Positions 11,301 to 14,300 of a stretch of DNA of 64,000 bases are shown here, in pieces (position 1 is the stretch's first letter; each line of letters begins with the position of its first letter). Source of the DNA: Amoebidium appalachense (lineage: Eukaryota > Protista > Ichthyosporea); assembly GCA_963693365.1 (NCBI GenBank), contig CAVNZM010000009.1:9800243-9864242 (forward strand), written 5' to 3'. A model generated the notes under the pieces. That model saw only the letters and a list, made by a program, of their open reading frames with translations. It ran no database searches and was not told the DNA's origin. The position numbers were made by a program, and so were the translations under genes.

Positions 11301-14300
11301 AGCAGCGGCGACTGGTGGTATATTCAAGAGCTTAGCATACCATTGGAGGGTACCCTGCTGGCCATAATCCTCTACTCTGACGCAACTAATCTGACAACTT
11401 TTGGAAACACGAAGGCATACCCAATTTATGTCACCATTGGAAACGTCAGAAAGAACCTACGGGCGCAGGACTGGGCGAGGTAGGTTTGTGTAGGCGTGTG
11501 TATGTATGCATTCGCAAATTGGGGGGGGGGGGGGGGGGGGGGGGGAGACAGCACAGAACTGGGGGGGGGGGGGGGGGGGGGACCAGGTGAAGCCCCCCCC
11601 CCCCCCCCCCCCCCCCCCCCCCCCACACACACACACAAAAACATACATCACGATATGTCGATACTATAGGCAGTATATTATGCCGTCGACGACGGTATAG
11701 GTTTTATTTGTGGAAATTATTGACATAAATATTTTTCTGGGTAAACACGTAGGATGGGTGTTCGATACCAACATAACCATGTAGGCTTCATTTCGTGTTT
11801 TAGCAGTTAGCGGTTGGCTGCCCGCACACGGGCACCTATTAGCCAGTCAAAACATCAGATACCACAGATCACTAGACCGAGTTATGATTGGCTCGGATCA
11901 GATTTCACATATCACTAGATCGATTTTTGATTGGCTCAGATCGGTAGGCTTAGGTATATAAGCACGACAGTTTTTAGCAGATCAGCAAGCTACAAACACA
12001 TCTTCTGTGTTTAGCATCCACAGCCTTACAGCTATATATTCCTTTTCACCCACCCACCTACACCCACACACAACCCCCATTGATCCACACATACGTGCTG
12101 TTTTTTCACGGGGCGAAGACTTCCCCCGTTTTTTGGGCACATGGACCTCACGGATCAATAAATTGATGACTGGGGGCTTGCCGTGGTTTACAACCATTGC
12201 AGGTTCACTTTCGTCCAAGGGGATGTCCCCCTAGAGGCAACACACGTCCCGGAGTAGTTTTTCATAGATTATAAATAGTGTCCCAACATATTGGTTATAT
12301 ATTGGGCATAACGATATGTCATTACTGTGGCGCCGACCGATGCAACCCTAACATCCCCACCCGGGGTGGCAAGACTTTGATCGAGCATTCTCTGTAGCAA
12401 CTAAAGACACACGCACAGAGAAAAACAAAAAAAAAAAAAAAAAAAAGAAAAGAAAACAAACAAACACACAAACACACAAACAAACACACACGCGTGTTGT
12501 TTAGGCTACTTGTAGGCGCGAGAATGGTGACCTCTAAGTCTACTTGTATAGGTTGGCTACAGGAGCACCCATACACCACACTGTCCAAAACTCAGCAGTG
12601 TAATGGTCCACCAGACCAACATGGTTAGTGTAGATGCAGTTCTCGTAGTTGCCTAGCGTTGCAGACGTCGTTGGATTGTAGGTGCCTGTTACCAGGCAGG
12701 TTTCAGCACCACAGCCAGGATCGGATATAACAAACTTGTTGTGCTGGCTGCCATAGAAAGGGTCCGCATGCGAAGGCTGGCGTGGGTAGGTGAATCCCAT
12801 CCCTATAGCAAGCCGCACATGCACATTCCCAGGATAGAAACGGTGGAGAAGCCGACGCTCGTGCTCTTGCTTCCAGCATGTTTTTGCGTGCATGGTTTTG
12901 TTCATTCTAATGGAGTCCTCAAACCCGGAAAGAATCTTGTCAACCACCTCGCTTATGATGTCTGGTTCGTCAAGTGAGAAGGCCGCGACCAGTATGCACG
13001 ATTTTTCTTTCTGTATAGCAGAGAGCCACGCTTGCTTGCACTCCCCACGAAAGTATGCCCTGGTTATGTCTTGCTCAGTTGCAGATTCATGGTAACCCTA
13101 TCCTTCCCCAGGTTGCCCGTGGCCTACATTCCTGAGCCCAGCACGGTTGATGGTGCCACACCTTCAGACGCGAAATGGACACATGCCCGGCTGAAACTTT
13201 TCCATGAGGTGCTAGAAATTGCTGTGGGCGCACCTCTGCGTGCATTGAATGTCAATGGTTTCTGGGGCTATTGTCCGGACCGAAAATGGCGTGTGTTCTA
13301 TCCTCGTGTTGCGTACTACATCACCGACTGGCCAGAGGGGCGCAAATGTGGATGCTGCAAGTGGGTTCCTCCCTCCCCCCCCCCCCCCCCCCCCCCTCCC
13401 CCCCAACACACACACACACACACACACACACACACCTCCCTCCCCTCCACCACAACCACCACCACCACAACCACCACCACCACCACCCCAACAACCACCA
13501 CAACCACCACCAAACCACCAACAATCACTTTCCCTTTATGTACTCATGTAGACACTGACACAGTTGTATGGTATCACACACAGACATGCGCTCACACACA
13601 CACACACACACACACACACACACACACACACACACACACACACACACACACACACACACACACACACACACACACACACACACACACACACACACACACA
13701 CACACACACACACACACACACACACACACACACACACCGAGAGTGCACGAGCAGCCAGCTTATCAGGACACCCCAACGCATTGCTATTGTATTGGCAACA
13801 CATTACAGATACGTTATATGCCGGGTTCATACGAATATAATACGATTATGCCATGCTAATGCGCTGTCGTTGTATTGCCAACACATGTCAAATACGGTAA
13901 ATACCGGAAGCATATGAATCGATTACAATTTAAATATCCGTGTAATACTGGTTTTACTGGTTTGTTCTGAAATTAGGGAGCAATGTCACCTAGCTTGGGT
14001 TAAAAACCAGTGCACTGACGTGAGCTTTGGCAGGGGGGGGAAGACGAGACGCCCGTGTCATCTGTGCTGGCAGACGGCCAAGGACTTGTGCGAGAAGTGG
14101 GGCGAAGAGGACTTACCGCCCCGCATAGAGGGGGATGTTAGGCTCATTCTGGATCGTATTGTCCAGCTGCGTGAAGAGGGGGGGCAGACAAAAGGAGGGA
14201 GGCAGCCGATCTTTTGCAGGATTCATCGCTTATCGTCAATGTCTACAATGCAGGACGCGATATTCCGGGATTCTGGTTGTTACAGGCAATCGTACCAGAA

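Follow-up and report, generated by a model that had tools for sequence, protein, structure and literature searches.

The DNA analysed here, a stretch of 64,000 nucleotides from Amoebidium appalachense referred to below as the window, contains a complete PlavakaB transposon of 18,815 bp with CATCA..TGATG ends. The left terminal inverted repeat (306–335, plus strand) starts with CATCA and is identical in 28 of 30 positions to the reverse complement of the right one (19091–19120, minus strand; E 3e-7), which ends with TGATG; the pair was detected by comparing the left end of the window against positions 17500–32000. The dinucleotide TG forms the target-site duplication (304–305 and 19121–19122), a 2-bp match that by itself has a chance of 1 in 16. 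An AT-rich subterminal region at 357–1794 holds repeats of an 11-bp motif (14 of its 35 matches in the window), and 16 more lie at the right end within 18150–19089, giving 30 of 35 for both ends together. In the main text of PMC12730594, PlavakaB is defined by CATCA..TGATG termini and duplications of 2–3 bp. Judged by its termini, its 2-bp duplication, and the C(2)C and H(3-4)H motifs of its transposase (read as CGCC/CHLC and HVGVH once its exons are joined), the element appears to be of the PlavakaB type. On its right side it interrupts Copia sequence: a Copia gag/protease region, broken by the Plavaka insertion, extends from 19121 to 20650 (minus strand), and a Copia reverse transcriptase frame lies at 21228–22100 (plus strand).

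The Plavaka transposase (Pfam PF18759) was described by a model of ten exons on the plus strand (8349–17597), in which the exons beyond the Pfam matches were modelled from sequence. The exons lie at 8349–8954, 9204–9368, 11112–11479, 13112–13360, 13977–14136, 14220–14546, 14786–14940, 15299–15521, 16030–16324, and 16965–17597. Its reading frame stays open over 959 codons; a single apparent shift of 1 base occurs in the final exon, within three consecutive G near 17236. A supposed frameshift in exon 5 was removed by an 83-bp intron. Intron 3 (11480–13111, 1632 bp, phase 2) begins with GT at 11480 and ends with AG at 13110–13111. The exons on its two sides match consecutive segments of the Pfam Plavaka profile (43–149, E 4.4e-20; 156–236, E 1.6e-8) and join in frame. 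Intron 2 contains a 190-bp tandem repeat (9693–10961, plus strand; 6.7 copies, 95% matches); tandem arrays are also described for Bostrychia Plavaka elements in the main text of 10.1101/2025.02.11.637652.

Intron 3 houses a non-coding element of about 570 bp and very high copy number (11699–12268), with imperfect short direct repeats at its ends (TATAG or TATCG / CATAG); tail-to-head joints occur. Other copies were found at about 1016–1581 and 31228–31546, so that two copies lie inside the Plavaka element. It gave 3130 and 3746 matching records with a summed depth of 1e4–1e6, compared with 12–460 in the flanks. These features suggest a non-autonomous tyrosine-recombinase element, a pattern that we take to be Crypton-like. 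Its empty site, including the flank on the side of the PLD frame described below, was found in the runs X1 and X4, and the element was therefore inserted later. It sits downstream of the PLD stop codon and was rejected as the carrier of the PLD frame.

Three cargo frames (an unassigned gene, a JmjC gene, and the PLD frame) all lie on the minus strand of the element. The JmjC gene (5392–6306; Pfam JmjC, E 4e-13) stands alone and is KDM4/Rph1-like: its best match among PDB sequences was Rph1 (E 4.5e-12), followed by KDM4D/A (E 3e-8), and its HxE motif and distal histidine align with the metal ligands. A short, charged, low-complexity frame with an ATG at 6817 (6488–6817, minus strand), for which only a sub-threshold Pfam match was obtained, is possibly the 5' exon of this gene. 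The third cargo gene has several exons (approximately 2120–4993, minus strand), recognized from frames and GT/AG borders. Four of its frames gave no Pfam match, and its best Atlas score of 0.83 serves as a lead only. A search of the whole element against Rfam returned no match.

Elsewhere in the window, piggyBac-like transposase frames (DDE_Tnp_1_7, zf-Tnp_2) are located at 22937–28324 (plus strand). Within them, an 865-codon frame at 25730–28324 (plus strand) combines a SAP domain with a weak YqaJ-like nuclease match, so this second transposon may carry an extra nuclease domain. The segments 31590–40101 and 43044–52974 form an inverted repeat of about 8.5 kb with 87–93% identity, which represents either a large fold-back or inverted duplication or a feature of the assembly. 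An RRG7/Mrr-like frame at 57226–57870 (minus strand) and the start of a class I tRNA synthetase gene from 61560 (plus strand) are probably ordinary host genes.

The PLD frame lies wholly within intron 3 of the transposase, on the opposite strand. The initial annotation had proposed this antisense nesting, and the splice borders, the in-frame exon join and the Plavaka matches on both sides of the intron bear it out. It had also recognized that the frame is longer than the listed 135 residues; from stop to stop, it spans 185 codons (12540–13097, minus strand, with the stop codon at 12542–12540). An equally long frame appeared in four of 500 dinucleotide shuffles of 12270–13111. The motifs it had quoted were all recovered: AYF at residues 14–16, CILVAAFSLD at 34–43, HNKFVISD at 119–126 (12743–12720), GTYN at 138–141, and NYEN at 150–153. 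H119, K121, and D126 form the HxKxxxxD motif, followed by G138, N141, N150, E152, and N153. The expected membership of the PLD superfamily was confirmed by Pfam PLDc_2, which matched residues 26–174 with profile positions 3–132 of 132 (E 2.4e-10, 40.8 bits, cut-off 27 bits). A profile of 23 homologues, from which the query was left out and which had been chosen via a search with the query itself, matched this frame alone, over residues 5–181 (E 7.9e-36), when all six frames of the window were compared. The GC contents of its codon positions (0.53/0.43/0.56) resemble those of the transposase (0.55/0.44/0.58).

Among PDB sequences, Nuc was the best match to the PLD frame (E 0.011), followed by PLD6/Zucchini (E 0.05–0.2). 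A structure predicted from a 24-row alignment of PLD homologues reached a pLDDT of 78.5, while the model from the single sequence was unusable (pLDDT 34). Foldseek placed Nuc (1byr) first (E 3.7e-11, TM 0.70/0.84), followed by NucT, FAM83, and Zucchini (E 1e-8 to 5e-7 for the last); viral structures matched less well (best E 5.5e-7). As the model was built on homologues picked by the same query, it supports membership of the family and nothing beyond. In Zucchini/PLD6, a zinc-binding insert lies between the first strand and the first helix. Neither the alignment nor the model of the PLD frame contains such an insert, and a hydropathy scan of the frame, in which the 5' end of the gene may be incomplete, detected no transmembrane segment (best 19-residue value 1.34). 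We conclude that the frame is a real and whole single-HKD PLD domain with a Nuc-like fold.

The 5' end of the frame is less regular. No in-frame ATG precedes the domain in the window, and none of the contigs matching the 5' end of the window supplies a start. The first in-frame ATG encodes M65 (12905), and a product starting there would be missing its first two strands and first two helices; the ATG at 13090 belongs to another frame, which closes after eight codons. Two remedies had been put forward in the initial annotation. One was a G missing from the assembly at 13088. The contigs X1 record 7 (12870–13360) and X4 record 30 (12936–13360) speak against it, as both match the window with no other letters and no gaps, with the limits that one matching run may be the source of the window and that contigs drop rare variants. 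The other was a TAG at about 13100–13098 as splice acceptor for an upstream exon. This site (13099–13098) has pyrimidines at only six of the 20 preceding bases, compared with 10–16 for nine acceptors of the transposase; the stretch upstream of it, being complementary to the pyrimidine tract of the transposase itself, is rich in purines. In a matrix trained on 14 sites (training scores -1.9 to 8.1), it scored -6.7, ranking 53rd of 62 minus-strand AGs and below all 14 training acceptors, and the proposal was abandoned. A 30-base intron joining 13127 to 13098 was likewise rejected, its acceptor being poor. The best candidate 5' acceptor is the CAG before 13059 (score 1.9, rank 14 of 62), from which an exon would open at RAYF, in the first strand. 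A candidate non-AUG start is ATA at codon 11. Near the other end, a T-rich tract (12391–12460, minus strand) contains two candidate acceptors, at 12400 and 12391, which rank 6–7 of 62 with scores of 4.1 and 4.3; tract and acceptors together weakly suggest a 3' intron close to or beyond the PLD stop codon.

Parts of the stretch are present in 20 of 22 listed runs, and at least half of its words in nine. The contigs of four of the 22 were aligned to the window, including X1 and X4, which are DNA runs from studies 13 years apart. Each of these two yielded one contig from a sister copy, with a PLD piece (12753/12784–13083) and an exon-4 piece (13199–13345) in the same order as in the window. The PLD piece carries 35–36 other letters and one gap, the exon-4 piece 12 other letters. 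Since the frame stands beside the same exon in a sister that has diverged by about 11%, it is cargo of the family and not of a single insertion. Between the two pieces the sister has 565 unaligned letters, compared with 115 in the window. The 450 letters by which it is longer may contain a 5' part absent from the window copy; alternatively, the sister may be a rearranged copy, as the start of exon 4 also fails to align there. In both runs, a single base at 13008, in codon 30, is missing from the sister. For the initial annotation, absence or decay of the frame in sibling copies would have counted against a nuclease gene: the frame is present in the sister, yet decay is seen in the window copy and in one sibling.

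At least 11 differences between copies were listed within the PLD frame, four silent and seven replacements. Compared with 217 homologous domains, the window copy departs from the consensus at four residues. At 139, the other contigs read S (214 of 217) and the window T (0); at 61, they read V (157, with V or I in 200) and the window D (0); at 59, V (120) and F (2); and at 66, D (151) and N (12). The replacements at 55, 80, and 89 fall in variable columns, and at 80 the window residue is the commoner one (36 vs. 8 of 217). GSYN was read by all of the X4 depth and about 45% of the X1 depth. With respect to the GSxN/NxEN signature, the window copy retains NYEN and has GTYN in place of GSYN. F59, D61, and N66 also occur in X1 record 7 and X4 record 28 and therefore do not stem from a fault in the assembly. 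X4 also yielded a third contig type, known from four variants at 12902–12935 only, which has V59, V61, and D66 and apparently joins the 5' end of the window type.

A 99-bp contig of X1 that spans the HKD motif (12684–12782) shows zero differences from the window, at a depth near the sum of two joining branches. This suggests that the HKD block is common to both copy types; gene conversion or assembly collapse could instead have produced the identical block. The silent share of the listed differences (4/11) compares with a random expectation of 21% (P 0.19), and the PLD piece is not better conserved than exon 4 (36/331, 10.9%, vs. 12/147, 8.2%; P 0.41). No fully intact PLD copy was present among the contigs of the four runs compared. 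Two runs, presumably of RNA, have no contig covering the PLD frame, an absence that carries no weight for its expression. The missing start and the charged residue in a conserved strand make it likely that the window copy is dead. With four non-consensus residues, no start, and no good acceptor, the copy has likely decayed.

The relatives of the frame are distant. A HMMER search of 1.84 billion representatives gave 123 matches (best E 5.6e-13; 24–46% identity over short stretches) and no close relative; the third match (P0003), a repeat protein, was discarded. Word-index protein searches returned nothing for the PLD frame, the JmjC gene, or transposase exon 3. Metagenome and viral contigs contained no locus related to the PLD frame, to either of two transposase exons, or to the JmjC gene. 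A plasmid search produced 11 weak PLD matches (26–38% identity). The named PLD matches are bacterial, fungal, and protist, and the top Atlas cluster (0.94, eukaryotic) is labelled mitochondrial cardiolipin hydrolase. In a tree of 217 domains and the query, built without a PLD6 sequence, no strongly supported group contains the query, and the donor can consequently not be named. The nearest homologues by tree have 80–220 residues ahead of the domain.

We favor, at a probability of roughly 45%, the reading that the PLD frame was an accessory nuclease gene of this PlavakaB family, now decaying in the window copy, with counter-silencing as its possible role. According to this reading, the product of an intact allele would be a small, soluble endonuclease acting on single-stranded nucleic acid; its gene would have been transcribed from the minus strand, as the other two cargo genes are, and selection would have maintained it in the transposon family. 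By analogy with its family, the protein would act as a homodimer whose subunits share one active site that works through a phosphohistidine, cutting single-stranded RNA or DNA. For single-HKD members, one active site per homodimer and a phosphohistidine intermediate are described in the main text of PMC10783504 as the mode typical of the family's nucleases. The enzyme might cut silencing RNAs or their precursors, alongside the presumed H3K9-type demethylase. Counter-silencing is favored on two grounds: the Plavaka cargo described so far targets marks on DNA or chromatin (the published accessory genes are chromatin or DNA modifiers in the main texts of PMC12730594 and 10.1101/2025.02.11.637652), and a KDM4-like gene travels in the same element. 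An RNA substrate, as opposed to DNA or lipid, is putative, and nothing in the data favors it. That the demethylase and an antisense Nuc/Zucchini-type nuclease form a two-part counter-silencing kit, intact in other copies, we regard as improbable.

The strongest competitor, to which we give a somewhat lower probability than to an accessory gene, is a neutral passenger: a PLD domain without its 5' part that was captured from a host, viral, or other-element gene and carried unused, its consensus residues being leftovers of the source gene. It would explain why contigs matching the 5' end of the window offer no start and why the 80–220 pre-domain residues of the nearest homologues are missing from the window copy. 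The frameshift in the sister, the non-significant silent excess, and a divergence not below that of exon 4 point the same way. Against it stand the completeness of the domain, in which every core catalytic residue is present and 185 codons run without a stop, the apparently unchanged HKD block in both copy types, and a codon-position GC resembling that of the element's own genes, none of which is decisive.

A functional window copy, with the domain exon spliced from an unseen upstream minus-strand exon or translated from the ATA at codon 11, seems rather unlikely. The score of the CAG before 13059 is within the range of the 14 training acceptors, similarity to the sister ends 24 bases upstream of this CAG, the T-rich tract and downstream acceptors hint at a spliced minus-strand transcript, and the other cargo genes share the strand. 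Nevertheless, no upstream exon was found, the acceptor matrix comes from 14 sites only, D61 places a charge at a strand position where 200 of 217 homologues have V or I, and 214 of them have S where the window copy has T139. Less probable still is a helper of transposition, that is, an intact nuclease that opens hairpins or trims flaps at donor ends and leaves silencing RNA alone. RAG-type transposases form hairpins, and Nuc/Zucchini-type enzymes prefer single strands. The close physical linkage of the frame to the transposase and the grouping of Plavaka with EnSpm, Transib, and RAG1 in the main text of PMC12730594 fit such a role, but the frame is not fused to the transposase, and the main texts of PMC12730594 and 10.1101/2025.02.11.637652 describe other Plavaka families without such a gene.

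With its precise ends, target duplication, and gene map, the locus documents a complete PlavakaB element whose genes are rich in introns. Accessory genes have been reported before from giant Plavaka elements, with products that modify DNA or chromatin; a nuclease of the PLD family would be a further and likely new class of transposon cargo. If the reading as a two-part counter-silencing kit is true, a transposon would be using an enzyme class that animals use for the production of anti-transposon piRNAs. The pairing of a PLD nuclease with a stand-alone KDM4-like JmjC gene offers a possible instance of counter-defence by a transposon that operates on two levels. The value of the PLD finding is limited by the apparent damage to the window copy and by the lack of an intact or expressed copy among those seen. 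The JmjC gene may be the weightier cargo, as stand-alone KDM4-like genes have so far been described from giant-virus insertions; the element indicates that they can also travel on a transposon.

Among known PLD proteins, the frame most resembles Nuc (Salmonella plasmid, 1byr) and NucT (6ehi), with which it shares a single HKD domain of about 160 residues. Nuc ranked best in PDB sequence (E 0.011), profile (E 6.6e-41), and fold comparison, and as in Nuc, the first strand leads directly into the first helix. Unlike these proteins, to which it is at most 20% identical in the fold alignment, it has GTYN, inserts of 20–30 residues before and after the fourth strand, and a eukaryotic transposon setting, and it shows no signal peptide or start. 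With Zucchini/PLD6/MitoPLD it shares the single HKD motif and the fold. Profile alignments start only from 51–53 for Zucchini and from 37 for Nuc, which fits a frame without the zinc insert. In the main text of PMC10783504, Zucchini has a transmembrane segment, in contrast to the PLD frame. Zucchini serves host defence, whereas the frame lies inside a transposon. Of the term Zucchini-like in the initial annotation, the single HKD motif and Nuc-like fold were upheld, but Nuc is the closer relative and a membrane anchor was not seen in the frame. Going by sequence and predicted fold, we class it as Nuc-type and do not file it as Zucchini.

In the literature, covered mostly as titles and abstracts with supplements outside the scope, no PLD nuclease was encountered as cargo of a eukaryotic DNA transposon. 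The word phospholipase is absent from the main texts of PMC12730594 and 10.1101/2025.02.11.637652, as are PLD, phospholipase, and Zucchini from that of 10.1101/2024.01.08.574619, and the available text of PMC6431247 contains no word beginning with phospholipase, nuclease, or JmjC. Apparent mentions of PLD elsewhere proved to be pLDDT or, in one case, a parvovirus-type phospholipase domain. Such a domain as the present one could already be recorded in the Repbase-type data of PMC12730594 or in the supplementary Plavaka gene maps of the two preprints. As far as their main texts describe them, PlavakaB elements with TET/JBP genes (PMC12730594) and the Bostrychia giant Plavaka elements with PAG1-3 (10.1101/2025.02.11.637652) resemble the present element in their CATCA..TGATG ends, 2-bp duplication, size of 17–19 kb, and accessory genes whose domains modify chromatin or nucleic acids; a PLD frame nested antisense in a transposase intron, together with a KDM4-like JmjC gene, sets the present element apart. 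The main text of 10.1101/2024.01.08.574619 describes Plavaka giant repeats of Amoebidium, which likewise combine a Plavaka transposase with large cargo; that cargo is intron-poor, with many tyrosine recombinases. The same text places JmjC-only KDM4-like genes of Amoebidium in giant-virus insertions and proposes that they counter silencing; like them, the gene carried by the present element consists of the JmjC domain only.
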